The notes under the pieces: generated by a model | The model's database searches: none | Seen by the model: only the letters and a program-made list of their open reading frames with translations | What the model was told of the DNA's origin: nothing | Translations under genes and position numbers: made by a program | NCBI GenBank assembly: GCA_026397375.1 | Contig: JAPLUZ010000022.1 | Coordinates: 24,234-88,233, forward strand | DNA length: 64,000 nucleotides | Reading direction: 5' to 3' | DNA from: Candidatus Aenigmatarchaeota archaeon | GTDB taxonomy: Archaea; Aenigmatarchaeota; Aenigmatarchaeia; GW2011-AR5 | Part shown: positions 1,576 to 51,993 of the stretch, in pieces | How positions within the stretch are numbered: position 1 is the stretch's first letter | Layout of the letters: each line of letters opens with the position of its first letter

Positions 1576-2738
1576 GAAACATAGCTGTTGTTGGAACGCA
1601 CCAGACAAAGTTCGGAGAGCTTTGGGACAAGTCGCTGCGAGATCTGGCTGTGGAAGCAGGCCTCGGAGCAATAAAGAATTCCGGCTTGGAGAAAAGCCAG
1701 ATACAGGCATTGTATGTTGGAAATATGTCAGCTGGCAGATTTGTCGGGCAGGAGCACCTTGGTGCTTTGATAGCTGATAATTTAGGATTGAAAGGTGTGC
1801 CTGCCACACGCTGCGAAGCTGCGTGTGCCTCAGGAAGCGTGGCTTTTCGTGATGCTTATTTTGCTGTTGCGTCTGGTGACATAGACGCTGCGCTTGTCGT
1901 TGGAGTGGAAAAAATGACTGACATCCACGGTAGTGGTGTACTCACTACGTTAGCGGCTGCTGGCGACCAGGAATGGGAAGCCTCAATGGGGCTAACATTT
2001 GCCGGACTCTATGCGCTGATGGCAAGAAAACATATGCACGACTTCCATACAACAAGAGAACAGATGGCCCAAGTAGCTGTTACTAATCATAAAAACGGAT
2101 TGAAGAACAAATTAGCGCAATTCCAGATGGCAATAACGCTGGAAGATGTGCTTACATCAACGATGATTGCTGACCCATTAAGGCTGCTGGATTGTTCACC
2201 TATAACTGACGGTGGCGCAGCTGTTGTTATTACCAGCGAAGATCTTGCCAAAAAGCTGGGTGGCCAGCCTATCTATGTATTGGGAACTGGCAAAGGGACA
2301 GATACGATAGCGCTGCACGACAGAAAGTCTTACACAGAACTGCTTTCTACGAAGCTGGCTGCTAGGCGGGCTTATGAGCAGGCAGGACTTCGGCCACAGG
2401 ATATAGATGTGACAGAGGTCCACGACTGCTTCACGATAAACGAGATAATAGCTATGGAGGACCTGGGATTTGTGGAGAAAGGCAAAGGCGGCAAATTCGT
2501 TGAGGATGGAGAGATAGATATTAATGGCTCTGTGCCTACCAATACGTGCGGCGGCCTGAAGGTCTGCGGTCATCCTGTCGGCGCAACTGGTGTAAGACAA
2601 ATTGCAGAAATTGTACAGCTGTTAAAAGGTGAATGTTTCAATCCGATAAACGGGGCTGAAATCGGACTGAACCTGAATATAGGCGGGTCTGGTGCGACTG
2701 CCGTTGTAAATATATTCGGGAAGGAGCCGAAGGTGTAA
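1572..2738 (+). CDS. Acetyl-CoA C-acetyltransferase (acetoacetyl-CoA thiolase)
   Basis: 388 aa; thiolase motifs (CEAACASGS active-site Cys region; C-terminal GHPVGATG... and NIGGSGAT). Confidence 0.85.
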   Translation: MRNIAVVGTHQTKFGELWDKSLRDLAVEAGLGAIKNSGLEKSQIQALYVGNMSAGRFVGQEHLGALIADNLGLKGVPATRCEAACASGSVAFRDAYFAVASGDIDAALVVGVEKMTDIHGSGVLTTLAAAGDQEWEASMGLTFAGLYALMARKHMHDFHTTREQMAQVAVTNHKNGLKNKLAQFQMAITLEDVLTSTMIADPLRLLDCSPITDGGAAVVITSEDLAKKLGGQPIYVLGTGKGTDTIALHDRKSYTELLSTKLAARRAYEQAGLRPQDIDVTEVHDCFTINEIIAMEDLGFVEKGKGGKFVEDGEIDINGSVPTNTCGGLKVCGHPVGATGVRQIAEIVQLLKGECFNPINGAEIGLNLNIGGSGATAVVNIFGKEPKV

Positions 2739-2740
2739 TT

Positions 2741-2992
2741 ATGCAAAGGGGGTTTTTGGTTGAGGGGGATGTTGTAGAAGTACAAGTAAAGGGCTTGGAA
2801 GATGGGCATACGGATCTTGTGAGGATTTATCATGTTATAGATGACGAGGTTTGCGCGTATCCTGAGAATATAAGTTTCCCGTGGATGAAGGATATTTGCA
2901 CCTACACGCTTGATGATGTTAAAAATGTCATTATTGGTCTTACTCCGCTGTTTCCCATGCAGTATCAGCCAATAACCAAGTATGTTAGGTAA
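2741..2992 (+). CDS. Hypothetical 83-aa protein in the mevalonate operon
   Basis: Starts 3 nt after the thiolase stop, same strand, unknown fold. Confidence 0.4.
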   Translation: MQRGFLVEGDVVEVQVKGLEDGHTDLVRIYHVIDDEVCAYPENISFPWMKDICTYTLDDVKNVIIGLTPLFPMQYQPITKYVR

Positions 2993-2997
2993 TAATT

Positions 2998-3225
2998 ATG
3001 ACATATAAACTTAGCTTTGACCCTGCGCAGCTGCCGCCCAGGAGTGAATGGAAAAGAACAACAGTATTGTTAAACGCTCCGTCCCGTGAACATATAGGGA
3101 TTTTGTCAGTTATGAAGGGCTGCGGTAAAAACGATGTTATACTTGATGCATTAACAAGATACATTAAAGAAGCTGGTTTTGATCCGTTCAAAAAACCAAA
3201 AAACATCATAGTAGAATATGAGTGA
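2998..3225 (+). CDS. Hypothetical 75-aa protein in the mevalonate operon
   Basis: Its stop overlaps the start of the DUF35 gene (ATGA). Confidence 0.4.
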   Translation: MTYKLSFDPAQLPPRSEWKRTTVLLNAPSREHIGILSVMKGCGKNDVILDALTRYIKEAGFDPFKKPKNIIVEYE

Positions 3226-3629
3226 TAATCATGCCGCATAGAGGATCTGTACCGATGTCGTGGAGACTGGCAAAGCACAGGTACGCTATGGTAGGCGTAA
3301 AATGTAGGAAGTGTGGAGCTGCGCATTTCCCGCCGCGCATGGTGTGCATGGATTGCGGCAGCCAGGACATGGACAAGTTCCAGTTTTCCGGCAACGGAGA
3401 GATATTATCCTACACGGTAATTCATACTGCACCAGAAGGGTTTGAAAAACAAACACCATATGCCATTGCCTTGGTCAAGCTGGAGGAAGGACCTGTGGTC
3501 AGTGGACATGTTATCAACAAAGAAAGCATAGAAATAGGAAAGCAGGTAAGTATGGTTTTCAGGAAGCTCTATGAGGATGGCAAAGCCGGAGTTATCAACT
3601 ACGGATTCAAGTTTGAGGTAGTTGAGTAG
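3222..3629 (+). CDS. DUF35-family Zn-ribbon/OB-fold protein (scaffold subunit of the archaeal thiolase/HMGCS complex)
   Basis: 135 aa; CRKCG...CMDCG zinc ribbon followed by an OB-like C-terminus; the three genes sit together in one operon here. Confidence 0.7.
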   Translation: MIIMPHRGSVPMSWRLAKHRYAMVGVKCRKCGAAHFPPRMVCMDCGSQDMDKFQFSGNGEILSYTVIHTAPEGFEKQTPYAIALVKLEEGPVVSGHVINKESIEIGKQVSMVFRKLYEDGKAGVINYGFKFEVVE

Positions 3630-3872
3630 TAGGTTAAGAAAGATTATTAGAAACTTCTCAAAATGTTGGCCATCTCAATTGTCATTAATAGTTGTTAACA
3701 GTTAAACTACATTTGCCAGAATTCTTAACAAAACAAGGAATTATTTGCAAAAACCAACACTGACCCTGTTGCTTCCTGTCAAAAGCAATAAATTAACCTC
3801 GATTTCTTATGCAAGATAGGATACCTCCTCTTCCTATAACAATGTTATATATAGTTAGTAGTATATGCGTGA

Positions 3873-6385: not shown

Positions 6386-9088
6386 GTGATAAAAATGAAG
6401 TTTCAAATACTGGACATTGATTATTTTCTAAATAACAACAAGCCCGTTCTCAGAATATTCGGCAAACAGGAAGACGGGACATCGGTCTGCGGCATGTACG
6501 ACAAGCTGGAGCCATATTTTTATATAAGGCTTGGCGTATCATTTGACAAGGCACTGGATGAAATGGAGAAAATGAGGGAAATAAAGAATGTGGAGCAGGC
6601 AGAAAGGTTCGTGCCTCTCGGGTACCAAACAAGCAAGACAAAACTATTGAAGGTTACATTATGGAACCCGCAGGAAGTGCCAACCGTAAAATCAAAGCTA
6701 ATTGAATTGGGCATAGCAAAAGATATTTTCGAAGCGGACATACTTTTCAAGTATAGGTTTATGATTGATCACGGGTTCTATGGCATGCAATGGGTTGAAG
6801 CAGACGGAGAGTCGACAAAGACTGTAAAATCAAAGGTCAAAACCTATAAAATAAATTCCATAAAACCAATTGAAAAACAGGAGAACGCGCCAATAAGTTA
6901 CATGGCATTTGATATAGAATGCGTGCCGTCGGACCCAAAAAGACCGCTTGACGCCAGAAAAGATCCAATAGTGATGATATCCTTGTCTTTTGTGCCTGAA
7001 TACAGAAACAAAAAAGACATTGTACTTGTTGCAAAGCCTTTCACCGGCGAAGGGACAAAGGGATTTGCCAATGAGAAAGAGATGCTCGAAGAGTTTCTGA
7101 ATATTATAGAAACGTATGACCCGGATGTGCTCACAGGCTACAACATAAATTCCTTTGACTTTCCATACATTGTAGAAAGGCTGAAGCAGAACAAGCTCAA
7201 CGCATGCATAGGCAGGACAGACAAGGAGGCCTTCTCAAGAGAGTTTGGCATAACCAATGAATTTATTGTTACAGGCAGGGTCGTTGTCGACCCGTACCAG
7301 ATATTGAAAAGGGATCCGTGGGTAAAATTTCACAGGTACGACCTCAATACAGTGGCAAAGCAGCTGCTGAATGAAGAAAAACATGCAGTTGAATACGGAG
7401 AAATGGCAGGACTATGGAATGGAGGAAAAGAAGGCCTTTCCAGGCTTATAGAATACTGCAGAAGGGATGCTGATCTATCACTTAAACTGGTCTTGAACAG
7501 GGGAATGCTGGACAAATTCTTTGAACTGTCGAAGATATCAGGCCTGCTTTTACAGGACGTATTCGGCGGCCAGACAAGGCGCATAGAAGTAATGCTTTTG
7601 CATGAATTCAGGAAAAGGGATTTCGTAATGTCCGCCGCGCCGTCACGCAATGACATGAGCAGAAGAACAGGCGAAAGAAAGGACAACGAACTGAAAGGCG
7701 CAACTGTCCTGGAGCCGAAAAAGGGCCTGCACGCAGAAGGCTGTGTTCTGGTTTTGGATTTCAAAAGCCTGTACCCGTCTATAATGAGAACATTTAATGT
7801 ATCCCCTGACTCGGTATTGCTCGACAAAGAACTTATAGAAAAAGTGAAATCACACCAGTCACCTACAGGAACACATTTCGTTGATGGGGAAATTTACCAG
7901 GGAATATTTCCTTTTGTGCTTACAAAATTGCTCGATGCAAGAGGTGCAATAAAGAAGCAGATGAAGACAAGCGCAGGAGATGAGAAAAGGATATTGAATG
8001 CAAAACAGCTCGCGCTGAAAGATATATGCAATTCCTTTTACGGATACACAGGTTACATACGCGCCCGCCTGTACATGATAGACGTTGCCAATAGCATAAC
8101 AGGCTACGGCAGGGATAACATAGAAAAAACAAGAAAGCTGATTGAAGAAAACTTTGACGTGGAAGTTGTTTACGGAGACACGGATAGCATATTTTTGAAA
8201 ACAAAAACAACAAATCTTGAAGAAGCACAGGAACTTGGCACAAAAATATCCAAGTTCATTACAGAGAGGCTGCCGGGCTATCTGGAATTAGAATTCGAGA
8301 AAATATACAGGACATTCCTCATACTTTCAAAGAAGCGCTACGCAGGATGGAAATTTGAAAAGGTCGGAGACAAATGGAATGACGAAATGGAAATGCGCGG
8401 CATAGAAACCGTGCGCAGGGACTGGTGCATGCTTGTATCCGATGTGATGAACGAGGTCTTGAGAATTGTTCTGAAAGAAGGGGATCTGCAGGCGGCAATA
8501 ACATGCGTCAAGGATATTTTGGACAAGCTGCGCAAGGGAAAAATACCAATGGAAAAATTGACAATAATCAAAGGCATTACACAGAGCCTGGATGCATACA
8601 AAGGAACGCTGCCTCATATAGAACTTGCAAAAAAACTGGCTATAAGAAATCCACACGACCCGCCAAAGGTCGGGGACCGCCTGGAGTTTGTCATAATCAA
8701 GGGAAACCAGATGCTGTCAAAGAGGTCAGAAGACCCCAGATACGCAGAGCAGAATAACATACAGATAGATTCAGACTACTACATAAACAGCCAGCTATTC
8801 CCGCCAATAGAGAGAATATTTGCAGCCGTTGGCATTGATAAGAGCGAGATTTTCGGCAGCGGTCATCAGGCAAGCCTGGGTGACCTGCTTTCCGGAAAGA
8901 AGAGAACAATGAAACACGACATCGAAATAGAATACAAAAAACTGGAAGGAATAGAAGAGTTCATCTGCAAGAAATGCAACAAATCTTACAGGAGAATACC
9001 GCTTTCAGGCGTGTGTGAATGCGGCGGAGAATTGCTAATGAGCTACCACGGATCTGTAGGAGACAAAATAATTCTGGACAAAAAATAA
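6386..9088 (+). CDS. polB: Family B DNA polymerase (PolB), exonuclease and polymerase motifs intact
   Basis: 900 aa; Exo I FDIE, Exo II YNINSFDFPY, Exo III YCRRDA; Pol A DFKSLYPSI, Pol B KDICNSFYGYTGY, Pol C YGDTDS; C-terminal Cys4 zinc fingers; probable start ATG 6395. Confidence 0.9.
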   Translation: MIKMKFQILDIDYFLNNNKPVLRIFGKQEDGTSVCGMYDKLEPYFYIRLGVSFDKALDEMEKMREIKNVEQAERFVPLGYQTSKTKLLKVTLWNPQEVPTVKSKLIELGIAKDIFEADILFKYRFMIDHGFYGMQWVEADGESTKTVKSKVKTYKINSIKPIEKQENAPISYMAFDIECVPSDPKRPLDARKDPIVMISLSFVPEYRNKKDIVLVAKPFTGEGTKGFANEKEMLEEFLNIIETYDPDVLTGYNINSFDFPYIVERLKQNKLNACIGRTDKEAFSREFGITNEFIVTGRVVVDPYQILKRDPWVKFHRYDLNTVAKQLLNEEKHAVEYGEMAGLWNGGKEGLSRLIEYCRRDADLSLKLVLNRGMLDKFFELSKISGLLLQDVFGGQTRRIEVMLLHEFRKRDFVMSAAPSRNDMSRRTGERKDNELKGATVLEPKKGLHAEGCVLVLDFKSLYPSIMRTFNVSPDSVLLDKELIEKVKSHQSPTGTHFVDGEIYQGIFPFVLTKLLDARGAIKKQMKTSAGDEKRILNAKQLALKDICNSFYGYTGYIRARLYMIDVANSITGYGRDNIEKTRKLIEENFDVEVVYGDTDSIFLKTKTTNLEEAQELGTKISKFITERLPGYLELEFEKIYRTFLILSKKRYAGWKFEKVGDKWNDEMEMRGIETVRRDWCMLVSDVMNEVLRIVLKEGDLQAAITCVKDILDKLRKGKIPMEKLTIIKGITQSLDAYKGTLPHIELAKKLAIRNPHDPPKVGDRLEFVIIKGNQMLSKRSEDPRYAEQNNIQIDSDYYINSQLFPPIERIFAAVGIDKSEIFGSGHQASLGDLLSGKKRTMKHDIEIEYKKLEGIEEFICKKCNKSYRRIPLSGVCECGGELLMSYHGSVGDKIILDKK

Positions 9089-11891: not shown

Positions 11892-13649
11892 TTATTTCTC
11901 TTTTCTTGTCATGTATTCGATTATTGTACCATAGGCAGGACGGGCTATGAGAACACCAACCAATACGCCCATTATGGTTATGATTGCGAAACCGCGCAGT
12001 GTCGGGAATCCAAACAAAAGGGGCAGCATGGCTGCAATGACGGTGCCGGCTGATCCGAAGACAACAAAGAAGGCGTTCTTTAGTTTCTCCCTCAGGGTCT
12101 CTATTCTTTCCTCTTCTTTTCTAAGGGTACGGTCAAGAATTATTATCTGGCTGTCAACACCGGTTCCGACTGATGCTATTATTCCTGCTATGGCTGCAAG
12201 GTCTATTGTCCAGCCTATAACAACGGAAAATCCAAGAACAATCAGGACTTCGCTCAACGATATGAATAGCATTGGTATTACCAGTTTTGGATGTCTATAG
12301 CGGGCAGAAACAACAATTATAATGCCAAGTATTGCGGCCAAGCCGGCCAGGGCGGCATTCTTCAGGAAACCTATACCAAGCGTAGGAGAAATTGTGTCCA
12401 GCTGCACAATCTGCACACTGGTTGGAAGAGCGCCTGATCTAAGTATAGATTGCAAGCTTGCCCTGGATTTTATTGCACTGTCTTTTGTCGGGGCAGATCC
12501 GCTTATCGATATTTCAGTCTCTGTCCTGCCCTGCAGGGAAGATGCAATGTTCAGGGCGTCTATGTATTTGTCATCCAGATAAAAATATATTAGCTGGTCA
12601 AGATAACCTGTTGCCAGTATTTTTGTATTAGCTGTGATCCAGGCAAATTTCTGCGCACCACCGCTGCTTAGCTGGACGCCGAAGGACCACTTGTAGGTAC
12701 CTCCGGTTACAGGTTCAAGTCGCGATCTCTGGGGGTCAAAAAAGACGGTTTTTATGTCGTCACCGCTGAAAACAGTTGATGTCATGTTCAAATTGTTTGA
12801 AATGGAATTAAGTGAGAAAGGTATGCCGGATAATATGAAATTATTGCCAACGTTAACGGTATTGCCGTCGTAAGATATGGAAGAATTTCCTACTACTATA
12901 TTGTATTTTTTGTCAAGGTTGATAACAGCTTTTCCGTTCTGTACTGGTATTAACAATGATATCTTGGCTTCAAACTTACCCTGCTTTTCTAACAGGTCTT
13001 TAAGTTCGTCTACGGTACCGCCGGCTATGCTTATTTCTACAAAGCCCTTATTTTGATAGTAAACAGGACGAAATATAGATTCCCTCAGGCCATAGACATT
13101 TATCCTCGTCTGTAAAGTGGATATTATCTGTTCTAGAGTAGAATTGCTTGTCGTATTCGGCTCCAGCGTGGCACGCACCCCACCTTTTATATCCAAACCA
13201 AATTTTAGATTATTGTAGGGCGATGGCTCGGCGGTGATGCCCAGCGTGCCATTTAATTTTACAAAGCGCATTCCTTTGCTGGTTTCTATCTTTGTCAGGT
13301 CATAATAGCTCTGCGACAAAACATTTTGGTCAGCATTTATGTCATTTATTTTGTAAATGATATCACCAGCCACTATTCCGGGTATGGTGGCATTCTTGCC
13401 GACTGATGTTACGATAAAGCCTGACGGATTGAGATTCGGTGCTATCAGAATAATTGCAATTAATATGAAAAATAGCCAGAGAAGAATTTTCCAGTTTTTT
13501 ATAAAGTCTCTTGGGAGCACAAGACCAAGAGAAATTACTATTATTATCAGCGAGGCCGTAATTGGGACTACGTTGCTGAAAGATACAGCTAACAAAATAA
13601 TTACGAGGGCTACCCAACCTATAAATTTTGCTTTAGAGCCTATTTTCAT
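11892..13649 (-). CDS. secD: Protein-export membrane protein SecD
   Basis: N-terminal TM, large extracytoplasmic domain, C-terminal TM bundle; follows secF on the same strand; start taken at MKIGSKAKF to avoid a long overlap. Confidence 0.55.
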   Translation of the reverse strand: MKIGSKAKFIGWVALVIILLAVSFSNVVPITASLIIIVISLGLVLPRDFIKNWKILLWLFFILIAIILIAPNLNPSGFIVTSVGKNATIPGIVAGDIIYKINDINADQNVLSQSYYDLTKIETSKGMRFVKLNGTLGITAEPSPYNNLKFGLDIKGGVRATLEPNTTSNSTLEQIISTLQTRINVYGLRESIFRPVYYQNKGFVEISIAGGTVDELKDLLEKQGKFEAKISLLIPVQNGKAVINLDKKYNIVVGNSSISYDGNTVNVGNNFILSGIPFSLNSISNNLNMTSTVFSGDDIKTVFFDPQRSRLEPVTGGTYKWSFGVQLSSGGAQKFAWITANTKILATGYLDQLIYFYLDDKYIDALNIASSLQGRTETEISISGSAPTKDSAIKSRASLQSILRSGALPTSVQIVQLDTISPTLGIGFLKNAALAGLAAILGIIIVVSARYRHPKLVIPMLFISLSEVLIVLGFSVVIGWTIDLAAIAGIIASVGTGVDSQIIILDRTLRKEEERIETLREKLKNAFFVVFGSAGTVIAAMLPLLFGFPTLRGFAIITIMGVLVGVLIARPAYGTIIEYMTRKEK

Positions 13650-14493
13650 TTTTATGCGCCTTTCTTTCCAGCCAAAATCTGAGAAAGCCGGAATTTGTGA
13701 ACCAGGTTGCAGGCATGTCAATGCACAACCCTATAATAAGAACCATGGCAATTTGCTCTATTACAAGAGAGCCAGAGACAAAGTACATTGCCAACAAAGC
13801 GGCCAGTGTGGTCATTGTCATAGTCAATCCGGTTTTCATGGCCTTCTTTACACTTTCACTGTAGTTGTGGCGACCACTTTTCAAAAGTTCGGATGTGAGC
13901 AGTATGTCGGTATCTACAGAGTAGCCTATCAACGTAAGAAGTGCTACAAAAACAGGCAGAGAAAGCGCCACACCAATTAAGCTGATTACGGCTATGGTAC
14001 CAATTATGTCAGTTATAGCCGCGAGCAGGACCGTTGATGCTGGCACAGGCGATCTGAATAAAATAAATACAGTTATTGCCATTAGCACAAAGGCGATTAT
14101 CAAATAGAGCTGGGTCTGCTGGAAGAATATGTTTCCCAAGGACGGGCCGACAATGCGAATGTTTGGCTGGCCCTTATACTGAACAATAGAGCCAAGCTGT
14201 GATATGACTTCTTTTTCATCTTTATCGAAGGGTATTTCTATGATCAGGGACTTTGTTAAACCAGAAGCAATCTTTACACTTGCATAGGGAAAAGCCGCCT
14301 GAACTTTATTCAGATCCACGTCGTTTACCTCGACTGTTATTACTCTTCCACCGCTGAGGTCTGCATCCCTCTTCATGAAGGAACCGGTAGTGACAATATT
14401 GTTTGCAATAACACCTATGGAAAACAGAAGGAATACTATCGTTATCAGCATCAAAAATTTCCAATGCTTATCGATAACATTAAAGATTGCCAT
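13633..14493 (-). CDS. secF: Protein-export membrane protein SecF
   Basis: 286 aa; periplasmic head then 5 TM with LIGYSVDTDILL region typical of SecF. Confidence 0.55.
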   Translation of the reverse strand: MAIFNVIDKHWKFLMLITIVFLLFSIGVIANNIVTTGSFMKRDADLSGGRVITVEVNDVDLNKVQAAFPYASVKIASGLTKSLIIEIPFDKDEKEVISQLGSIVQYKGQPNIRIVGPSLGNIFFQQTQLYLIIAFVLMAITVFILFRSPVPASTVLLAAITDIIGTIAVISLIGVALSLPVFVALLTLIGYSVDTDILLTSELLKSGRHNYSESVKKAMKTGLTMTMTTLAALLAMYFVSGSLVIEQIAMVLIIGLCIDMPATWFTNSGFLRFWLERKAHKNENRL

Positions 14494-14629
14494 ATGTCCA
14501 AAACATTAACACAAACAAACTTAAAATAGATTCCACCCAGAAAAATTACGTTTGTATTCTAATTGCATTACTTATTTTCATAATCCTACAATGAAACACT
14601 TTTTAATAAATTCCAGTGAAACGATAGAA

Positions 14630-15724
14630 ATGCACGATGTTATAATTGTAGGCAGCGGTGTAGCTGGTTCTTATCTGGCATCAAAGCTGCCAAGGAGCCT
14701 GGACACCGTTGTAATAGAAAAAAACAAGGATATAATACCGAAGGACAGTGGCATTGTATCAAAAAGAATAGAGCAGATTCTTGGCAGAGATGCCGAAAAT
14801 TTAGTGGAACATAAAATAGCAAAAATGGATTGCATTTCCCCACTGGGCAATACATTTTCTTTGCGATCGGAGGAGCCGTTTGCCTACATTCTGGAAAGGA
14901 AAAAGTTCGGACTATATTTAAGAAAAAATGCAAAGGAGCGCTGCACCTTTGTAACCGACGGCGTTACTGGCGTGGATTTCTTTGATGATCACGTAAGCGT
15001 AAAAACGGTTTCAGGAGTTTATGACGGAAAAATGGTCATTGGCTGTGATGGAGCGCAATCAACAGTAAGAAAATGCATGGGCATAGAAGGACCAAAAATT
15101 TCGCTGGGAATGATGGTTAAAACAAAGCAGAAATTGCAGGGCGACATAAGCGTTTATTTTAACAAATACTTCTCGCCGGACTTTTTTTCATGGGTAATAC
15201 CACAAACAAATGAGTACGGGCTTATGACTGCTATAAGACCGAGGGAATATTTTCAGTATTTTGTAAGCCGTATGTACCTGCCTAGGGGAGATTTCTACGC
15301 GTACACGATACCTTATACATATACAAAAAGTTACGCTAACCGCGCGTTGCTCATAGGAGATTCCTGCGGCCAGAACAAACCATTAACCGGCGGCGGCATA
15401 ATTTTCTCAATGATGGCAGCAGACCATGCAGCAAAAATAATTGCCGACGCATTTGAAGAAAAAAGGTTTGATCAGCACTTTCTAAGCTTCTACGAAAAAT
15501 ACTGGAAAAAAGATCTGGCGTGGGAAATAGAAAAACAATACCTACTGAGGATGATATACAAGAAACTGACAAATGTGGAGCTGGATGAGATGATCGGTGA
15601 ATTCGGGCCCATTTTATCTTCTTTGAGCGTTTTTGATTATGATAAATTGAGTAAAATGTGGAAGGACCTGCCAAAACTAAAGTTGCTGAAATTTATTTTA
15701 CCAAAAATTTGCAGGGCATTTTAA
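14630..15724 (+). CDS. FAD-dependent geranylgeranyl reductase (digeranylgeranylglycerophospholipid reductase family)
   Basis: MHDVIIVGSGVAGSYLASKL dinucleotide-binding motif at the N-terminus; ORF frame opens at 14552, ATG at 14630 chosen. Confidence 0.65.
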   Translation: MHDVIIVGSGVAGSYLASKLPRSLDTVVIEKNKDIIPKDSGIVSKRIEQILGRDAENLVEHKIAKMDCISPLGNTFSLRSEEPFAYILERKKFGLYLRKNAKERCTFVTDGVTGVDFFDDHVSVKTVSGVYDGKMVIGCDGAQSTVRKCMGIEGPKISLGMMVKTKQKLQGDISVYFNKYFSPDFFSWVIPQTNEYGLMTAIRPREYFQYFVSRMYLPRGDFYAYTIPYTYTKSYANRALLIGDSCGQNKPLTGGGIIFSMMAADHAAKIIADAFEEKRFDQHFLSFYEKYWKKDLAWEIEKQYLLRMIYKKLTNVELDEMIGEFGPILSSLSVFDYDKLSKMWKDLPKLKLLKFILPKICRAF

Positions 15725-15770: not shown

Positions 15771-17003
15771 ATGAGTCGATTGGCAATGAAGCAAAGGACG
15801 ATAAAATTTTTACAGAAGTATTGGGCATTTTTTGCAATAATTCTAATAGTTGCTTTAGGTACACAAATCAGGCTTTTAGACTACCAATGGTCTTATCTGA
15901 GAAATATAGACTCCTACAATTTTGCAAGGCAGATGGAAGAAATATCGGCAAATGGAGGGCTGCCGGATGTAGATACTTTATCCCTTGCACCTTATGGAGC
16001 TGCAAGAGCAGGGGGCAGCATTGATTTTTACGTATACCTCGGCGCTTACACCTATAATTTTACCAGGCTGTTTATACCAAATTTGTCATGGTTTAATTTT
16101 CTCTTGTGGTTCCCCGCGATCCTTGCTTCGTTAAGCGCAGTGCCAATATATTTCATAGGAAAAACATTTTTTGACAGAAAAGCTGGTGTACTTGCAGCAT
16201 TTTTTCTGATATTTGATCCTTCCATAATATCTCGTACACTCGGCGGGGACCCGGACAGCGATGGCATAGTTCTGATAATGCCACTTATCGCTATGGCAAT
16301 TTTCCTCATCGCTTACAAGTATGCAAATAGCACAAAGAAGTTTGATACAAAATATATTTTGTATACGATATTATCTGGTATAGCAATGGGATTATGGGGG
16401 CTGACCTGGATAGGCTACTGGTATGTGCTCTGGCTTATAACGGGATTCTTGCTGGTGCCTATTATAGCTGAGATAATAAAAAAGAGGAAATTGAGTGCCA
16501 TTGGCAATTTTAAGCATGGCATCATTGTATTTTTTGTAACAATAATAATATTCTTCCTGATAACAATACCAGTTATTGGAACATTTGTTGTTACACAGAC
16601 ATTCTACGGGCCATTCTCCTTTGGCGAGATAAAAAGTGAAGAAAATAACCAGTTCCCCAACGTGTACGTATCTGTCGCCGAGTTACAATCATCAGGTGAT
16701 GTAAAAGATGTAATACAGCGTGCAATCGGAATGAATTTTAGTCAAAATGCGCTGGCAATTATTATTTCGCCGTTCTTTTTGATGATTTATGGTCTTATTT
16801 ACCTCATTTATTCCTACGCCAAAAAGAGGCAGCATTTTGACACGCTGGTATTGCTGCTAATATGGTTTGTCGGGCCTTTCATAGCAACAATCGCTGCTGT
16901 AAGATTTTCCGTTTTGTTTTCGGCACCAATAGCCATAGGAGCTGGAATTTTCCTGGCAAAGCTGCTGAGGATGATAACCGAGGGAGAAAAAATAGAGGAC
17001 TGA
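15771..17003 (+). CDS. aglB: Oligosaccharyltransferase AglB/STT3, N-terminal 12-TM part (split gene)
   Basis: 410 aa polytopic membrane protein; acidic loop motifs (GGDPDSDG, SVAE resembling the SVSE/TIXE motif); ends at TGA 4 nt before the next ORF, which is in a different frame. Confidence 0.55.
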   Translation: MSRLAMKQRTIKFLQKYWAFFAIILIVALGTQIRLLDYQWSYLRNIDSYNFARQMEEISANGGLPDVDTLSLAPYGAARAGGSIDFYVYLGAYTYNFTRLFIPNLSWFNFLLWFPAILASLSAVPIYFIGKTFFDRKAGVLAAFFLIFDPSIISRTLGGDPDSDGIVLIMPLIAMAIFLIAYKYANSTKKFDTKYILYTILSGIAMGLWGLTWIGYWYVLWLITGFLLVPIIAEIIKKRKLSAIGNFKHGIIVFFVTIIIFFLITIPVIGTFVVTQTFYGPFSFGEIKSEENNQFPNVYVSVAELQSSGDVKDVIQRAIGMNFSQNALAIIISPFFLMIYGLIYLIYSYAKKRQHFDTLVLLLIWFVGPFIATIAAVRFSVLFSAPIAIGAGIFLAKLLRMITEGEKIED

Positions 17004-17007
17004 TGAA

Positions 17008-17976
17008 ATGAAATACAAATATATTTATCTTGCAATAGTTTTCATATTCATAGGTTTTTTAATAAATAGTTTCTACATAGCCCCGTCAATAGATATAGTA
17101 AAAGGTGCGGGTCCCGTATTCTCTGAAAACTGGGTAAACTCCATGAACTGGATAAAAAACAATACAGCAGAATGTACAGTAATTGCTACTTATTGGGATC
17201 CAGGCCACTTTATAGCGGAAGTAGCCAGAAGGGCCACGGTTTTTGACGGCGCCCACCAAAATGATCTGTTTACAATAACAAGAGAGGGTAACCTCACGGA
17301 CAGTGAAATATTACAGCTTGCGCCAACAGGAAAATATTCAGTGCAGAAAAAAGAAGTAAATGGCACACTTTACACATTTGTAGCAACCGCCAGGATCCAG
17401 GATATAGGAACGTCACTCTCCACAAGCAACGAGACATTAGCATACGATATTCTAAAACGCTATAACAAACCAGGATGCAAAGAGATGTACTTTTTAGCAA
17501 CTGCGGACCTCATAGGAAAAGCCCACTGGTGGACATATTTTGCATCGTGGAATCCTGTGGACAAGGGAAAGGCTTCTGATTATCTTATGCTTGGACTTAG
17601 CCAGGCAAGACCCGTTGTGCAGCAGAATGCCATAGCCTATACTTTTGCATTTGGCCAGCAGCAGGCCTTTGTTATATACGATAGAAATGACACGCTTTCA
17701 GCGTATTTACAGCAGGGCAATCAGTTTGCCGACATAGAAAAACTGTTTTATTTCAGCAGAAACGGCCAGCCAACCCTTATTCAGAATCAAAATTCTCAGG
17801 TAAAGGGTATGATATGGCTAGATCCTAGCAGGCAAACAATGGTATTTATACCGCCCGAGTTGGAAGACGCAATATTCACACGCATGTTTTTCTTCAACGG
17901 CGCGGGGCTGCAAAAATTTGAATACGTAAACGCGTGGGGCGGAGAAGTTAAGCTATTCAGGATCCAGCTCAGCTGA
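17008..17976 (+). CDS. aglB: Oligosaccharyltransferase AglB/STT3, C-terminal part (TM13 plus soluble domain with WWDYG-like motif)
   Basis: One N-terminal TM helix then ATYWDPGHF (divergent WWDYG) and AYDILKRY (DxxK-like). Confidence 0.55.
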   Translation: MKYKYIYLAIVFIFIGFLINSFYIAPSIDIVKGAGPVFSENWVNSMNWIKNNTAECTVIATYWDPGHFIAEVARRATVFDGAHQNDLFTITREGNLTDSEILQLAPTGKYSVQKKEVNGTLYTFVATARIQDIGTSLSTSNETLAYDILKRYNKPGCKEMYFLATADLIGKAHWWTYFASWNPVDKGKASDYLMLGLSQARPVVQQNAIAYTFAFGQQQAFVIYDRNDTLSAYLQQGNQFADIEKLFYFSRNGQPTLIQNQNSQVKGMIWLDPSRQTMVFIPPELEDAIFTRMFFFNGAGLQKFEYVNAWGGEVKLFRIQLS

Positions 17977-29077: not shown

Positions 29078-29785
29078 GTGGACCAAAAAAAATATTACAA
29101 CGACCTGTCGAAGGGAAAGATAAAGGTAAGAGACATAGACATAAAATTCACCTCAAAATGGCTTGAAAAAAGCGTGATAAACTTCGCAGACCTTGGTAAG
29201 GACCTAAAAGTTCTGGACGCAGGGTGCGGAAGGGGGAGGCTTGAGGACAAGCTGGTTGGAAAATGCGACATAATAGGAGTAGATATATCAGCAGGGGAGA
29301 TAACTAGGGCTAAAACTGGTAAATTCCTTGTTTCGGATGTGACACAGCTGCCATTCGATTCAAACGTATTCGACAGAATAATATCCATGGAGGTTGTAGA
29401 GCACCTTCCATCCAAAGATAAAGTCAGGCATTTTTTTGAAGAATCGTACAGGATACTAAAGCCTGGCGGCGTGCTGAGCTTGTCTACCCCAAACGTGAAT
29501 AACCTCGTGTTCTTTTTTACACATATTGTAAAGGGAAAAAGAAATCCCAACCCAGTATTGCACCCTACCATGCTTACAAAGAAATATTTAGTAAAGACGG
29601 CGAAAGAGGCAGGATTTAACATAAAAATATTCAAAACGTACCTTTTCCCTATACCCGTTCCAAGATACGAGTATATATTTCCGACATATTTGATGAAGAT
29701 TCTAAATAAAATTGGTGAACTGCCAGGATTTGGTAGTGTATCTTTCGGATTTGTAATGAAAGCGGAAAAGCGCAATGAGCCTTGA
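29078..29785 (+). CDS. Class I SAM-dependent methyltransferase
   Basis: VLDAGCGRGRL motif I, ISMEVVEHL motif. Confidence 0.6.
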   Translation: MDQKKYYNDLSKGKIKVRDIDIKFTSKWLEKSVINFADLGKDLKVLDAGCGRGRLEDKLVGKCDIIGVDISAGEITRAKTGKFLVSDVTQLPFDSNVFDRIISMEVVEHLPSKDKVRHFFEESYRILKPGGVLSLSTPNVNNLVFFFTHIVKGKRNPNPVLHPTMLTKKYLVKTAKEAGFNIKIFKTYLFPIPVPRYEYIFPTYLMKILNKIGELPGFGSVSFGFVMKAEKRNEP

Positions 29786-41958: not shown

Positions 41959-43614
41959 TTAAATATTGATGTCTGTGACATTGTAAACGAAGGTCGAATA
42001 GCCTAGAATAGCGTCTGGCGTTCTTTCTCTTAACCAGGAATAGCAATCCCTTCTAATCATGTTTAACATATCGATGGAAATTGCGTAGATCCCATTAGCA
42101 GGTTGGCAGCTGGCGTAAGAGAAATTACCATAATAATTCCAGAAAGATTTTGGAATTGGCGTGGATATGTACAGACTGGTTAAGTTATGCTGCTTTGCGT
42201 ACTTGCCTACTTCATTTATTCCCTGACCAATGTCTATGTTGGCGTCACTAAGCCACAAATAACCATTTTCAGGCTTTCCTATGAACTGGTTGAAATATGA
42301 CATATTGTAAGGCAGGAATGTCACTGCTTCAAACACGTACCATATGAGAAGTGCAATTATAAATAAATTCAGAATTCTTTTTTGATGTTTTTTTAGGTTC
42401 GCGGTTACTATGCTGCTTAAAATAACAAAAATAAACGGGTAGGCTATCATCAAATGTCTTAGACCTATGTCGAATCCGATAAAGAAAGATAAGAAGATAA
42501 AAGTAGCAATTATTGGAAGTACAATAAACAGCCAGTCTTTTTTCATCTTAATTTTCTTCGAAGCCAAAAATATTGTGAACATAAACAAGAATAAAAGGAT
42601 AGAAATGGGCGTTTTTATCAAGTAAGCAATTATGTAAAAATACCACCAGCCGTGTACCGACGTCTCACCCATTAGGAAGCTTATATGGCCTTCGGTAGAA
42701 TGCCATATGTTATATCCTAGGGCAGCATTCAGATACGCCGGAACAGGAACAGGAACATTCATTAAATTTGTTACTAAAGATTTCATGCCTTCGCTGTGAA
42801 ATGTCTGATTTATAAAATCCGTCGCCTTTTCATTTGAATGAACGACATTTATCATGCTGTCGAACTGGAATCCATAAAAAGCCCATATAACAAGAAAAGC
42901 AATTATGTAATAAATGACAGCCCTTTTAGCGGTTTTTAACGATATTTTTCCGAAATAAAAGAATAACACAAGTGTTATAGGTATTAACAGCAGAGCAGTG
43001 AATTTACTTAGCAGTGCAAGACCCAGGGCAAATCCTGCTATAATTAAAGATGATTTACTTGAATTTTTGAGAAGACACCAAAAGTAATAGACCGCTATAA
43101 ATATAAAAGTGGTTGCCACCAAATCACTGGTGACTATGGAAGAATTACCCAGTATAGTAGGCTCGAAGGAAAATAGAATCAGCGCGATAAGTGCTGCCTT
43201 GTTTCCATATAGTTTTCTTGACCATCTGAAAATAAAGAACCCCAAAAGCACTCCGGTAAGTGCTATGGGAAGCCTTGTTAGGAACAACAGATTATCCAGC
43301 CCATAGGCCTGTGCATTTGCTGACATGTCAAACGGCTTGTGGGACCAAACAGGATTTTTATCGAATATCAAAAAAATACTGTTTATGTAGTACGACAGAA
43401 CAGGATGAGACCTTAAAACGAAAGGACTGCCAGGGCCAAAGTCTTTTGTTTCTATAAGGTATTTTCCAACACCCGGATAAAACTGCTCATCACCGATCAT
43501 GCCGATATTCAGGATTATGTAAACGGATTGAATAAAATATATAAGTAGGAGAAGTGCGGCAAAGATCTCTACTCTATTTTTATAAATAAACTTGTAAATA
43601 TTTTTTGGAATCAT
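41959..43614 (-). CDS. GT-C fold membrane glycosyltransferase (ArnT/PMT-like, GT39/83-type)
   Basis: 551 aa, more than 10 TM, polytopic architecture typical of lipid-linked-sugar-dependent transferases; very AT-rich. Confidence 0.5.
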   Translation of the reverse strand: MIPKNIYKFIYKNRVEIFAALLLLIYFIQSVYIILNIGMIGDEQFYPGVGKYLIETKDFGPGSPFVLRSHPVLSYYINSIFLIFDKNPVWSHKPFDMSANAQAYGLDNLLFLTRLPIALTGVLLGFFIFRWSRKLYGNKAALIALILFSFEPTILGNSSIVTSDLVATTFIFIAVYYFWCLLKNSSKSSLIIAGFALGLALLSKFTALLLIPITLVLFFYFGKISLKTAKRAVIYYIIAFLVIWAFYGFQFDSMINVVHSNEKATDFINQTFHSEGMKSLVTNLMNVPVPVPAYLNAALGYNIWHSTEGHISFLMGETSVHGWWYFYIIAYLIKTPISILLFLFMFTIFLASKKIKMKKDWLFIVLPIIATFIFLSFFIGFDIGLRHLMIAYPFIFVILSSIVTANLKKHQKRILNLFIIALLIWYVFEAVTFLPYNMSYFNQFIGKPENGYLWLSDANIDIGQGINEVGKYAKQHNLTSLYISTPIPKSFWNYYGNFSYASCQPANGIYAISIDMLNMIRRDCYSWLRERTPDAILGYSTFVYNVTDINI

Positions 43615-43626
43615 TTAACTCACGCA

Positions 43627-45183
43627 CTAAATTTTTTTATAGATAAGAATATAACCGTTCTGCTCCGGACTAAACCTATGGTGAACCGGGTCTGGAAATT
43701 CTGACCATTGCTCGCCGGTATTATGAACAGTAAAAATCTCATATTTTGCTGTATTGATGTAAAGATCTAGGTTAGCATTCGGCGATGTTGTGGCATTATC
43801 TATAATAATCCATCTGTAAGATTCGTTAAGTTCGGATAAGTTGTTTCTAGATATTATATTTTCTTGGGATGCATTAAGATACATTACAAAGGCTTGTGGT
43901 GGCACATAATTCGACATCAGAAATATTTTATCCCCCTTAACATAGGTCTGCGAAACGACTTTTATTACGGATTCGCTGGAATATTCATAATGATGGGTTG
44001 CCTCGTACAAATAATCGAAAAAATAATACCTGGGCTGTAAGCTTCTTGATAAAAATCTGTCAGTAACTTCCTGCGTGGCATACGAGCCCAGATCAACATT
44101 TCTAATGAAATTTAATGGAATAATATTGATAAAGTTTGTGAAAACTAAAATAATCAGAATGATAAATCCTAGAAACTTCATTGCATTATTCTTTCTTGCA
44201 AAGAACATTTGAGAAATAACATATGCAATAAGAATAGATGCAAGCGGAAGTAAAACAATAAGTTTTCTTATGGAAATAGGTCCTGTAACACTGATAAGAG
44301 AGGACAGCACCAGGATGGTGATTATTATTGTCAAGAAGAGACGATGCTCGGTACTTAATTTTCTCCAGTTAATTTTGTTCTTTTTTACAAGATACAGACC
44401 AAGCACAACAATAGCAGGCGGCAGGAAGAACACCAGCAGATAGAAAACACCAGATGCAATATTCAGCAGGAGAAACCCCGTGTTGAAAACCGATGAAAGA
44501 GGGCTAAGGGTCTGCCTAGAGTACAGCCACAAGATAATTAGCGGCAGTGAAAATATCCCAATCAAAATGAATGGGCTGAAAATATTTTTGATGTTGTTCC
44601 TTCTTTCAATAATAGAAAATAAAAATAAGCCGGCTATTAGATAAATGCCCACCTCTGCATGCGTGTAAAATAGAATTACAGAAGAAATTATGAATGGCAG
44701 CATGGAATTCTTCCTGTTTTTCATGAATCTGATAAAGAAGAAAATTGTCAACAGGGAAAAGAACATCAGCATGGAATAGTACCGTCCGTGGCGGGCATGA
44801 AGATAAAACAACGTGGAAAATATCACAAGCAGGAAGGCTATTATTCTTGTCTTCCTATCCTTTACGTTTTCTTTCAAAAAGACGAAGTAGAGTACTAGAA
44901 ATAATATGCCAAATACGGCGGATACAAACCTAATGGAAAATTGGTTAAGACCAAAAACCAGTACTGACAAAGAAGTTAGATAAAGGTGTGGAAGCGTGAC
45001 AAGAGAGACCTGAAGATCACCAGGATACCCGATTTTTATTATTTCCTGAGACCTTTCCACGACGTAGGCTTCGTCGGTGGGGCCAATAAACCTGTCGCCT
45101 AAATTATAAAATAAAAGAAGTGCGGCCAGAACTAAACATATAATAAAAAAACATTTCTCATAATTTTTAGATGTGAAATGCAT
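43627..45183 (-). CDS. GT-C fold membrane glycosyltransferase (ArnT/PMT-like), paralog of the preceding gene
   Basis: 518 aa, more than 10 TM. Confidence 0.5.
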   Translation of the reverse strand: MHFTSKNYEKCFFIICLVLAALLLFYNLGDRFIGPTDEAYVVERSQEIIKIGYPGDLQVSLVTLPHLYLTSLSVLVFGLNQFSIRFVSAVFGILFLVLYFVFLKENVKDRKTRIIAFLLVIFSTLFYLHARHGRYYSMLMFFSLLTIFFFIRFMKNRKNSMLPFIISSVILFYTHAEVGIYLIAGLFLFSIIERRNNIKNIFSPFILIGIFSLPLIILWLYSRQTLSPLSSVFNTGFLLLNIASGVFYLLVFFLPPAIVVLGLYLVKKNKINWRKLSTEHRLFLTIIITILVLSSLISVTGPISIRKLIVLLPLASILIAYVISQMFFARKNNAMKFLGFIILIILVFTNFINIIPLNFIRNVDLGSYATQEVTDRFLSRSLQPRYYFFDYLYEATHHYEYSSESVIKVVSQTYVKGDKIFLMSNYVPPQAFVMYLNASQENIISRNNLSELNESYRWIIIDNATTSPNANLDLYINTAKYEIFTVHNTGEQWSEFPDPVHHRFSPEQNGYILIYKKI

Positions 45184-50145: not shown

Positions 50146-51993
50146 ATGCGGTTGCTAAACTGCATTCTAATCCTATTTTTCCTTGCTTACCCGTCACACG
50201 CTATAATCATAAATGAAGTAATGTACAATCCTATCGGTTCTGATAGCGGAAACGAATGGCTAGAAATCTACAATAATGATACAGAAACATACAATCTAAC
50301 AGGATGGAAAATAAATATTGATGACACAGACCATACGCTTAATGTCCCGCCAAGCAACGGCGGGATAGGATCAATGATAGTTGACCCTGGTAATTATGTC
50401 ATAATAGCGCAGGATGCAATAAAATTTTTGAGTAATTATCCAAGCTACAATGGAACGGCCATCGACAGCTCTTGGGATAATCTAGTAAATTCTGTAAACA
50501 AAACCATATGGATAAGAAATTCCACAAATGTATTTCATAACATAACAACCTTTGCTAATTTAACAGAAGGAAAAACGTTTTGCCTGATTAACAGCATCTT
50601 TATGGGATGCGACCCAACACCAGGATATGTCAATGGTCTTGTACAAAATACTACAGGTCAGACTGACGAACAAAACAATATAACCGGTTCGTGTGATTTA
50701 GGGCTATGGATAGAAACAAGTTCGGATGTTTATAACGTTTCCACAATTTATTTTGACATCAAAGTAAATGATACAAACTGCACTGAAAAAGATACCACGA
50801 TAAATTATTATATTCAAGATTTGTTCGGTAACATTGTAAAAGCGCCTGTCGATTCGGTCATCAATTTAGCATGTACGGCGTCTTTGCAGCACCAGTGGAC
50901 GCCCGATGACATGCAGGGTTCAGAAGCGTACTATATAATTGGGAATATTGTGAACGCAGACTGTAATGACACAAACATGAATAACAATGTCGCCTCAAGA
51001 CTAATAGTTGTCAAAGGAAACAACATTCAGACAGGTTCTTCTATAGATATAATTTCTGTTGATATGGGTTCTGACAATTCTGTAAAATATGGAGAAGCGG
51101 CTAACATAAAAATAAGGGCATATCGGGGCGATACATCAAAATATGCAATAGATGTTTGGATAGAGAATTCAGGCAAAAAACTCAGCAGTATAAGCACAAT
51201 GCATGCAAAGAACAAGTTCACCGAATACGAATTTCAGGTTCCTGTCCAATTGAAATCAAATTGCGACAACGCTTTCAATGATGGCGAATACGACGTTATC
51301 GCTGACGGCTTGGACATAACAAAAACAGCAAAGATAAATATTTCAGGCATCTCAACAACAAACTGCAAGACAATAACTATAAGCACAAGCGGTGGCGGAA
51401 GCAACTCGTATAGCTACACACCAAGCGAATTGTTTTCCCACGAAATAACAAAATATGAAAGTACCGCGGAAACAGGCGAAGAAATAGAAACTATTGTAAA
51501 CATAGTCAATAATTTCACAACACAGAAAAACTTCACGGTATATTCCTATGTTTACAAAGGCAACAATCCTGTTTCTTCCGGCCTTAATGAGAAGAATGAA
51601 TGGAAGGGCGGTTATACGGCAAACTCAATATCGTTTCTGCTTAATCCAAAGGAATCAAAGAACATTGTTCTAAAGAATAAGATAGATGAAGACACAGAGC
51701 AAGGCATGTATAATTTTAGAGTAAGAATAAAAGTTGACGGCAAGGACAATGATATAACAAAGGATATTTACGTCATAAAATCAAACACGACAAATATCAT
51801 TTCTTCTGCAGGATCGGGAATAGATTCTGGCGCAAAATCAAACAATATAATCGCAACCAACAGAACAATAGAAAAAGTTTCTAAAATGACGGGATTGATT
51901 ACAGACAAACCCAAGATAAACTCGAACTTGAATATATTTCAGCCGCCTTTGATTGTTCTGTTTAATTTTATAATGGCACTTTTCTGGGCATAA
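50146..51993 (+). CDS. Secreted/anchored lamin-tail-domain (LTD) surface protein, Asn/Thr-rich with many N-X-S/T sequons (candidate S-layer or surface glycoprotein)
   Basis: Signal peptide, LTD signature IINEVMYNP...NEWLEIYNNDTETYNLTGW, more than 25 N-X-S/T sequons, C-terminal hydrophobic anchor. Confidence 0.6.
   Translation: MRLLNCILILFFLAYPSHAIIINEVMYNPIGSDSGNEWLEIYNNDTETYNLTGWKINIDDTDHTLNVPPSNGGIGSMIVDPGNYVIIAQDAIKFLSNYPSYNGTAIDSSWDNLVNSVNKTIWIRNSTNVFHNITTFANLTEGKTFCLINSIFMGCDPTPGYVNGLVQNTTGQTDEQNNITGSCDLGLWIETSSDVYNVSTIYFDIKVNDTNCTEKDTTINYYIQDLFGNIVKAPVDSVINLACTASLQHQWTPDDMQGSEAYYIIGNIVNADCNDTNMNNNVASRLIVVKGNNIQTGSSIDIISVDMGSDNSVKYGEAANIKIRAYRGDTSKYAIDVWIENSGKKLSSISTMHAKNKFTEYEFQVPVQLKSNCDNAFNDGEYDVIADGLDITKTAKINISGISTTNCKTITISTSGGGSNSYSYTPSELFSHEITKYESTAETGEEIETIVNIVNNFTTQKNFTVYSYVYKGNNPVSSGLNEKNEWKGGYTANSISFLLNPKESKNIVLKNKIDEDTEQGMYNFRVRIKVDGKDNDITKDIYVIKSNTTNIISSAGSGIDSGAKSNNIIATNRTIEKVSKMTGLITDKPKINSNLNIFQPPLIVLFNFIMALFWA

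Follow-up and report, generated by a model that had tools for sequence, protein, structure and literature searches.

The STT3, AglB and PglB proteins are the universal catalytic subunit of N-glycosylation, and to our knowledge they have always been described, and studied structurally, as one chain in which the thirteenth transmembrane (TM) helix, TM13, tethers the sequon-binding domain to the membrane domain; we know of no member described so far whose TM and external domains are not on one chain. In a single-chain oligosaccharyltransferase (OST), the TM domain supplies the acidic residues of external loops (EL) 1, 2 and 5, the metal, and an Arg for the lipid phosphate, and the external domain supplies the WWD motif together with the DK/MI pocket for the Ser/Thr at position +2 of the sequon. 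The active site is said to lie between these two domains, according to the accounts of PglB by Lizak et al. in 2011 and of Archaeoglobus fulgidus AglB (AfAglB) by Matsumoto et al. in 2013. We analyzed a 64,000-nucleotide stretch of DNA from a Candidatus Aenigmatarchaeota archaeon (assembly GCA_026397375.1, contig JAPLUZ010000022.1, forward-strand positions 24,234 to 88,233; hereafter the window), in which two neighboring open reading frames (ORFs) correspond to these two parts: aglB-N for the membrane domain (ORF1, chain 1) and aglB-C for TM13 and the external domain (ORF2, chain 2). Judging from the sequence, the pair is very probably a naturally split AglB, that is, a GT66 family OST made as two polypeptides which most likely assemble non-covalently in the membrane. 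It is apparently an undescribed architectural variant of a well-known enzyme, conserved across its phylum; no description of a split AglB or STT3 was found in the searchable literature, where the passages on split genes that surfaced all concerned Alg13/Alg14, an earlier mention elsewhere being possible.

The best structural match for chain 1 is A. fulgidus AglB-L (3WAJ, 5GMY and 7E9S; E=5e-11), with which the protein encoded here shares the GT-C fold, 13 TM helices, long EL1 and EL5 loops and an external domain, and whose D47, acidic EL2 motif, xxxE motif in EL5, conserved Arg and WWD-type pocket align with those of the split AglB. AglB-L is one 868-aa polypeptide, whereas here the protein is encoded by two genes with the cut in the cytoplasmic loop between TM12 and TM13; the external domain, at about 290 aa, is also smaller, and the pocket motifs are YWDPG and DxxxK in place of WWDYG and the E<>K variant. 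For chain 2 the best structural match is bacterial PglB of C. lari and C. jejuni (3RCE, 5OGL, 6GXC and 3AAG; E=4e-12). Like the split AglB it carries D-x-D in EL2, and its compact external domain is comparable in size, but it is a single chain with an MI (Ile-type) pocket and a D/E-x-N-x-S/T sequon, while chain 2 has an invariant Lys as in a Lys-type pocket. As for eukaryotic STT3A and STT3B, the best alignment of the chain-2 family profile is to STT3A, and the EL5 motif of chain 1, SVAE, resembles what we take to be the eukaryotic SVSE form. Eukaryotic OST is also a multi-subunit membrane enzyme, but its STT3 is one chain and its extra subunits are unrelated to it, whereas here the catalytic subunit itself is divided. 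The locus shows the 12 + 1 TM helices, EL1 and EL5 loops, catalytic acids and (in variant form) WWDYG motif of GT66 members, and departs from them in not being a single polypeptide.

Split genes as such are already familiar from DPANN archaea, for instance from Nanoarchaeum equitans, in which Waters et al. in 2003 reportedly described divided genes for reverse gyrase, RNA polymerase B, alanyl-tRNA synthetase and others. The Aenigmatarchaeota are placed in kingdom Nanobdellati, i.e. DPANN, and the likeness extends from the shared superphylum to an enzyme divided at a domain boundary into separate polypeptides that are presumed to reassemble. The split genes of N. equitans are mostly unlinked and have soluble products, whereas here a polytopic membrane enzyme is divided, its halves are usually adjacent and apparently coupled, and split and fused forms vary among relatives. 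A parallel in glycosylation pathways comes from Alg13/Alg14 and EpsE/EpsF, which PMC4973528 and PMC8993221 present as split versions of a MurG-like glycosyltransferase, the Alg13/Alg14-type enzyme being fused or split by lineage with repeated fission and fusion; like AglB here, these are glycosylation-pathway enzymes with both fused and split forms. They differ in being GT-B, GT28-like enzymes of a step in lipid-linked oligosaccharide synthesis, in which the split parts a membrane anchor from a soluble catalytic domain, whereas the cut in AglB separates two parts of one active site.

On the forward strand of the window, aglB-N occupies positions 15771-17003 (410 aa from an ATG start; the TM1-TM12 part of STT3/AglB) and aglB-C positions 17008-17976 (322 aa, also from an ATG; TM13 and the extracytoplasmic catalytic-core domain). 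Chain 1 is closed by tandem in-frame stops, TGA TGA (17001-17006), of which the first lies at 17001-17003 and the second at 17004-17006; the ORF2 start codon follows 4 nt past the first of these, in frame +1 relative to ORF1. Immediately before the stops, the forward-strand hexamer GAGGAC (16995-17000) both encodes the final Glu-Asp of chain 1 and forms a Shine-Dalgarno (SD)-like site 8 nt 5′ of the chain-2 ATG. Both proteins are exact matches to entries on a 103-kb contig of a Candidatus Aenigmarchaeota metagenome-assembled genome (MAG), MCX6815385.1 (locus tag NT120_00855; 405 aa, with the start placed at M6) and MCX6815386.1 (NT120_00860), each named "hypothetical protein" at NCBI. No further STT3-like sequence was found in the 64-kb window besides these two ORFs. 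An earlier prediction made from the sequence without database searches (hereafter the original prediction) had described a 410-aa ORF ending at TGA and a 322-aa ORF beginning 4 nt later in another frame, and its coordinates match the sequence.

The membrane half is readily recognized. ORF1 matches the Pfam STT3 N-terminal family PF02516 (E=1.8e-27, residues 37-401) and aligns with residues 6-444 of AfAglB, and an AlphaFold2 model built on 120 homologues (predicted local distance difference test, pLDDT, 93.3; predicted template-modeling score, pTM, 0.92) contains 12 membrane-length helices. By our own reading of the DSSP string, these lie roughly at residues 18-35, 86-101, 107-120, 123-147, 164-188, 193-210, 214-238, 241-269, 272-287, 327-352, 356-375 and 377-404, leaving a long EL1 at 36-85 and a lower-confidence loop at 288-326, where EL5 is expected. 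When the model was compared with the PDB using Foldseek, the best 18 matches were all AglB, STT3 or PglB (TM-score 0.61-0.70, E down to 5e-11), followed by other GT-C enzymes. The catalytic loops carry the residues that the fold calls for, as judged by conservation among 120 homologues. In EL1, the motif LRNIDSY (15897-15917, forward strand, as are all motifs given here) places D47 opposite D47 of A. fulgidus AglB (3waj/5gmy), the first catalytic Asp, and residues 42-49 around it are conserved to at least 90%. The second, DXD-type metal-binding motif, GGDPDSD in EL2 (16242-16262), aligns with the GFNDHH region of AfAglB and has D160, P161, D162 and D164 invariant. The EL5 segment FPNVYVSVAELQ (16653-16688) holds an SVSE/TIXE-type motif, S301-V-A-E304, with the catalytic Glu; P296, N297, V298, S301 and E304 are invariant, and the segment sits in the flexible lower-confidence loop of the model, as EL5 should. 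R378 (16902-16904), in the segment AVRFS, is invariant and aligns with R426 of AfAglB, a position which we take to contact the lipid phosphate. The original prediction had seen in ORF1 a 12-TM N-terminal part of STT3/AglB with acidic loop motifs, and both points are confirmed, by the profile match, the model and the fold search on the one hand and by the near-invariant D47 and the invariant D160-P-D162 and E304 on the other. In one 479-aa chain-1 homologue (P0241, on a contig of 57,694 bp), roughly 70 aa containing additional hydrophobic segments are inserted past the EL5 motif, and this protein matches the profile in two stretches.

The external half by itself is barely recognized: ORF2 scores E=0.048 against Pfam PF22627, below threshold, and E=0.002 against P. 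furiosus AglB. A profile of its family, searched against the PDB, matched STT3A residues 465-561, covering TM13 and WWDYG, at E=2.4e-7. The AlphaFold2 model of chain 2 (pLDDT 95.6) consists of a long N-terminal helix, residues 3-34, followed by an alpha/beta domain, and its best 28 Foldseek matches in the PDB are all oligosaccharyltransferases, among them the C. jejuni PglB C-domain, Pyrococcus AglB soluble domains, yeast and human STT3, and PglB 6GXC at E=4e-12. The N-terminal helix (17014-17109) coincides with the hydropathy peak at residues 1-31, aligns with the helix that precedes WWDYG in STT3A, and is the equivalent of TM13, a predicted N-in signal anchor after MKYK. The motif YWDPGH (residues 62-67; 17191-17208), aligned with both P. 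furiosus AglB and STT3A, is the version of WWDYG predicted for the Ser/Thr pocket: YWDPG aligns with it column by column, keeping the W-D core and the Gly, with the first Trp replaced by Tyr and the Tyr by Pro. Across 120 homologues, every residue of the hexamer (Y62, D64, P65, G66 and H67) is invariant save W63, which is conserved to at least 90%. Further along, after the strand at 159-165, DLIGKAHWW (17506-17532) forms a DK-like, Lys-type motif with D167, K171 and W175; the model places it on helices 167-170 and 172-179, and D167, L168, K171, W174 and W175 are invariant in the homologues. At DxxxKxxxW it is one residue longer than the canonical DxxK, and K171 may occupy the pocket; DK and MI motifs are defined in PMC3703281, which documents insertion variants of the DK motif for Archaeoglobus AglBs.

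The original prediction had read ORF2 as one TM helix followed by a WWDYG-like YWDPGH and the rest of AglB, a reading with which profile, model and fold search agree, so that its own proviso that profile searches might find the two ORFs unrelated to STT3 came out negative for both halves. Its DxxK-like motif stands as to the invariant Asp and Lys, while the spacing is DxxxK (D167-L-I-G-K171). With its 5 sequons, ORF2 also ranks second in the window for sequon density. One of these sequons, N51-N52-T53 (17158-17166), lies just 5′ of YWDPG within a near-invariant KNNT segment (N52 at least 90% conserved, T53 invariant); because of this conservation, the external domain of the enzyme may itself be glycosylated.

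The break is conserved among relatives. In a collection of 5.8 billion proteins, the best 120 homologues of each ORF, reaching down to 42-44% identity, are 353-468 aa long for ORF1 and 289-462 aa for ORF2; none is full length, and several pairs have adjacent locus tags. Surveying GTDB contigs with one genome per species, we found chain-2 relatives at 74 loci, labeled Aenigmatarchaeota almost throughout, of which 7 were left out for lying at contig ends or being too short. In 61 of the 67 informative genomes, AglB is split into two same-strand ORFs with the chain-1 homologue upstream, and ORF1 homology stops at residues 393-410, within the same cytoplasmic loop. Since the same cut is kept in 61 related species, the pair in the window very probably represents a real two-piece enzyme, and the break is not a sequencing error; the comparison with orthologs that the original prediction had proposed thus favors the natural split over a frameshift, the two options it had named. 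The junctions themselves vary widely, with all three stop codons and every frame relation represented (ATGA overlaps at 7 loci, TAAATG at 5, TGAnATG at 9); the gap is between -20 and +16 nt in 44 of 58 measured junctions of relatives, the extremes being an overlap of 20 nt and a gap of 172 nt. Such varied gaps, stops and frames fit coupled genes rather than a conserved recoding site. The GED...ED tail of chain 1 is kept in the consensus of its homologues, and an SD-like tetramer occurs at -4 to -18 of the chain-2 start in 31 of 48 relatives versus 9.8% of random positions. Both halves are under strong purifying selection, with ratios of nonsynonymous to synonymous substitution (dN/dS) in 10 close pairs of 0.03-0.32 for chain 1 and 0.016-0.13 for chain 2.

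The remaining six informative genomes comprise three in which a single ORF has both parts (L042, L052 and L066) and three in which the C-half stands without a nearby N-half. In these last (L055 3932-4939, L058 3968-4966 and L059 3959-4951), an aglB-C homologue with the motif YWDPGYW directly follows a YchF/Obg-like GTPase gene, and no aglB-N was found on either strand within the 4 kb upstream or the approximately 0.7-3 kb downstream. The protein P0267 was considered as their missing N-half and rejected, having its own C-half gene adjacent and overlapping. Three of the split loci, all of one lineage, have a gene for a 220-aa SAM-dependent methyltransferase between the halves (L013 2120-2779, L015 3314-3952 and L067 3300-3959); homologues of it adjoin aglB-C in L021 and L014, and a methyltransferase elsewhere in the window (29078-29785) is a distant relative at 31% identity. 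At L031 (2413-3709), the chain-1 gene itself appears broken into overlapping ORFs, 2413-2850 and 2708-3709, by a genuine frameshift or an assembly error, unlike the clean and conserved cut at the TM12-TM13 loop. Split aglB also turned up under other phylum names, namely in L043 (QMSS01000037.1, "Thermoplasmata"), L072 (JAWAMY010000001.1, "Pacearchaeota") and P0019 and P0230 ("Woesearchaeota"). Because L043 is nearly identical to L045, and L072 to L048, both labeled Aenigmatarchaeota, these records are probably mis-binned or mislabeled MAGs and no evidence of a split outside the phylum.

From these features we propose how a two-chain enzyme would work. Chain 1 would carry the metal-binding and catalytic acids D47 (EL1), D160-x-D162 (EL2) and E304 of SVAE (EL5), plus R378, and with its 12 TM helices would end in the cytoplasm. 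Chain 2 would start in the cytoplasm, as MKYK and the positive-inside rule predict, insert N-in/C-out as a substitute for TM13, and export a globular domain bearing the pocket for the +2 Ser/Thr of the sequon, formed by Y-W-D of YWDPGH and K171. The active site would be a composite of both chains, and catalysis should need their complex, because the conserved sets of active-site residues are on separate polypeptides. The two genes, 4 nt apart, would belong to one operon in which GAGGAC at the end of chain 1 acts as the ribosome-binding site for chain 2, so that translation would be coupled and the chains made in roughly equal amounts in the same place. The tight, SD-containing junction suggests such coupling, with both chains synthesized at one site, and the locus has what a translationally coupled two-gene operon would show: a shared strand, N-to-C gene order, a 4-nt spacer and an internal SD-like site.

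The three single-ORF relatives (L042, 724 aa; L052, 816 aa, MBI2583439.1; L066, 858 aa) align end to end with ORF1 and ORF2 in succession, and the position of the break in them is the short ...GE(D/G)K... loop that joins TM12 to TM13 on the cytoplasmic side, where the original prediction had put it; fused L052 has two extra TM helices inside this loop. An exhaustive search of 1.84 billion representatives with a profile of the chain-1 family gave 2,665 matches. Of the approximately 38 closest, which score above 180 bits, nearly all are no longer than 500 aa, the fused exceptions being P0271 (629 aa), P0272 (826 aa) and P0274 (727 aa), whereas the matches listed below 180 bits are nearly all ordinary full-length AglBs, mostly 850-1,200 aa, the rest being fragments or short matches. 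Because the weaker matches are almost all full-length AglB, the split is confined to this family.

To place the fused forms, we built a neighbor-joining (NJ) tree of the concatenated halves, rooted with long AglBs, which, being distance-based and drawn from MAGs, does not decide the matter. Near its base are P0274 and P0271, with a bootstrap value of only 46% for the basal position of P0274, and L042, L052 and P0272/L066 are nested among split forms. Support is 100% for the clade that includes L042 and L052; L042 groups with the L039 group at 80-89%, L052 with L047 and L026 at 92%, and P0272 with the L056 group at 100%; in sequence, the L042 N-half comes closest to split proteins of 405-410 aa, with which it shares 57-63% identity. 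These fused forms inside split clades rule out one clean fission (80-100% NJ bootstrap), and fission and fusion would have recurred, since single-ORF versions nest among split ones. Parsimony favors an early fission in the phylum with at least two later re-fusions; alternatively, the gene may have split repeatedly at this one permissive loop.

The N-terminus of chain 2 has also varied. The TM helices predicted before its external domain are mostly odd in number (1 in 41 proteins, 3 in 47 and 5 in 9). The extra helices, which lie in N-terminal extensions of 50-155 aa (in L043, L045, L049 and L050, in P0020, P0038 and P0043, and in others), are mostly paired, giving totals of 1, 3, 5 and possibly 7; with helices added in pairs, the N-in/C-out topology would be kept. 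The two helices inserted in the TM12-TM13 loop of fused L052 are the same insert. In the L045/L050 lineage, chain 1 is extended as well, by approximately 60 charged-type residues.

A different view of the division of labor would have the enzyme modular: a catalytic, lipid-binding chain 1 would be served by a separately encoded acceptor-recognition chain 2 that tunes sequon specificity or activity through assembly. Chain 2 can be unlinked from chain 1 and can gain 2-6 TM helices, and it could in principle be exchangeable or independently regulated. We consider this unlikely; if true, switching between one gene and two would reflect selection and not neutral drift.

Another account, which we hold to be improbable, accepts both halves as real genes that no longer form a joint N-glycosylating OST, so that chain 1 alone would act, for example, as a GT-C glycosyltransferase or a lipid-linked-oligosaccharide hydrolase, and chain 2 as a membrane-anchored binding protein. 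It draws on two observations that also weigh against a functional two-chain AglB. The C-halves of L055, L058 and L059 lack a nearby N-half, and no specific N-half candidate for these three lineages was found among the retrieved proteins. The motifs YWDPG and DxxxK deviate from the canonical WWDYG and DK pocket motifs, so that acceptor specificity or even function could differ. Weighing on the two-chain reading itself, a second, ordinary full-length aglB could lie elsewhere in these genomes, the search having covered the 64-kb window and approximately 2-9 kb around the loci of relatives. Against separate functions, gene order and tight coupling are kept at 61 loci, and both halves retain residues needed only for a joint active site, namely the acidic triad and Arg in one, the W-D and Lys pocket in the other. 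Within the clade the halves have more than once been rejoined as one ORF or have remained so, which is likewise hard to reconcile with separate functions. The two halves also match in evolutionary rate, their pairwise distances being correlated at r=0.905, a value reached in 0 of 999 permutations, but such a correlation is expected for any pair of genes with a common genome history.

That a single canonical polypeptide is restored by programmed recoding (a +1 frameshift or stop read-through) or by protein trans-splicing is highly improbable. The 4-nt spacer and +1 frame in the window are compatible with a +1 shift, but two consecutive stops would have to be passed, no conserved slippery sequence was found, and relatives show every frame relation, with spacings that range from a 20-nt overlap to a 172-nt gap. 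In three genomes an entire gene separates the halves, and in three others the C-half has no N-half within 4 kb. Trans-splicing has further against it the lack of any Hint or intein Pfam match at E up to 1, and the summed 732 aa of the two chains equals the length of fused relatives (724 aa and upwards), which leaves no surplus junction residues and so no room for intein halves. That a sequencing or assembly indel, or a recent frameshift, turned one aglB gene into an artefact or pseudogene is practically out of the question: ORFs 4 nt apart in different frames are what a 1-nt indel could give, the source is a MAG, and relative L031 has an apparent frameshift inside chain 1, but the same break recurs in 61 independently assembled species genomes with differing stops, frames and spacings, in the window chain 1 ends in tandem stops and chain 2 begins at a proper ATG preceded by an SD-like site, both halves have dN/dS values far below 1 (0.016-0.32), the catalytic residues are invariant or nearly so, and in some relatives the halves are unlinked or have another gene between them. 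On these comparisons we regard sequencing error, pseudogenization, programmed recoding and trans-splicing as excluded, the single-base error that the original prediction had named as a refutation is likewise not borne out, and the natural split that the original prediction had allowed for is favored by the conserved break, the varied junctions, purifying selection and the halves lying apart in some relatives.

If the two polypeptides do form one enzyme, a phylum-wide version of this kind implies that the covalent TM13 tether is dispensable and that the chain tolerates a break in the TM12-TM13 loop. The 61 natural pairs together with their fused relatives would make a ready system for studying how a composite OST active site assembles, and they offer a clean case of a polytopic membrane enzyme whose gene has undergone fission and fusion repeatedly. 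Annotation is affected too: surveys that search for full-length AglB, or that apply current Pfam models to the C-half (E=0.048), would wrongly credit Aenigmatarchaeota with a truncated OST. The interest of the finding is moderate and lies chiefly with specialists in N-glycosylation and membrane-protein evolution.

Genes around the pair are in keeping with a role in glycosylation. Directly upstream of aglB-N, on the same strand, lies a FAD-dependent geranylgeranyl-reductase-like gene (14552-15724; Pfam FAD_binding_3), and 19 related loci have a homologue of it close to split aglB, which in 18 of them lies upstream and shares its strand; secF lies further upstream in 13. Loci with the reductase include L008, L010, L042, L043, L045 and L050. 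Its product is plausibly a polyprenol or dolichol reductase that would saturate the glycan carrier. Downstream, Pfam scans bear out the glycan-synthesis island that the original prediction had placed next to the pair: the region 17969-45183 encodes an LPG_synthase_TM protein, four GT2 and three GT4 glycosyltransferases, approximately eight sugar epimerases or dehydratases, a Wzx-type flippase, a DegT aminotransferase, a nucleotidyltransferase, methyltransferases and two PMT_2-type GT-C proteins, and it may be the source of the glycan donor. The last two genes stand in tandem at the far end of the island on the reverse strand (PMT_2/PMT-type; 41959-43614, 551 aa, and 43627-45183, 518 aa), and their products could be lipid-linked-sugar-dependent O-mannosyl-type or glycan-extending transferases.

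A candidate substrate is encoded further along the forward strand at 50146-51993, a secreted LTD-domain protein (Pfam LTD, E=1.3e-12) with a C-terminal hydrophobic tail. The original prediction had called it heavily sequon-laden, and with 18 N-x-S/T sequons, or 2.9 per 100 aa where the window median is 0.39, it does have the highest density in the window; the excess is modest given its composition, however, since its N/S/T-rich sequence predicts 12.6 sequons and the observed number is 1.4 times that.

Elsewhere in the window, reverse-strand ORFs for a SecD-like (609 aa) and a SecF-like (286 aa) protein at 11892-14493 overlap by approximately 90 nt as listed, and because of this overlap the true start or end of SecD probably differs from the listing. 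Also encoded in the window are a DNA polymerase of family B (6386-9088) and a helicase of the Lhr type (52720-55491).

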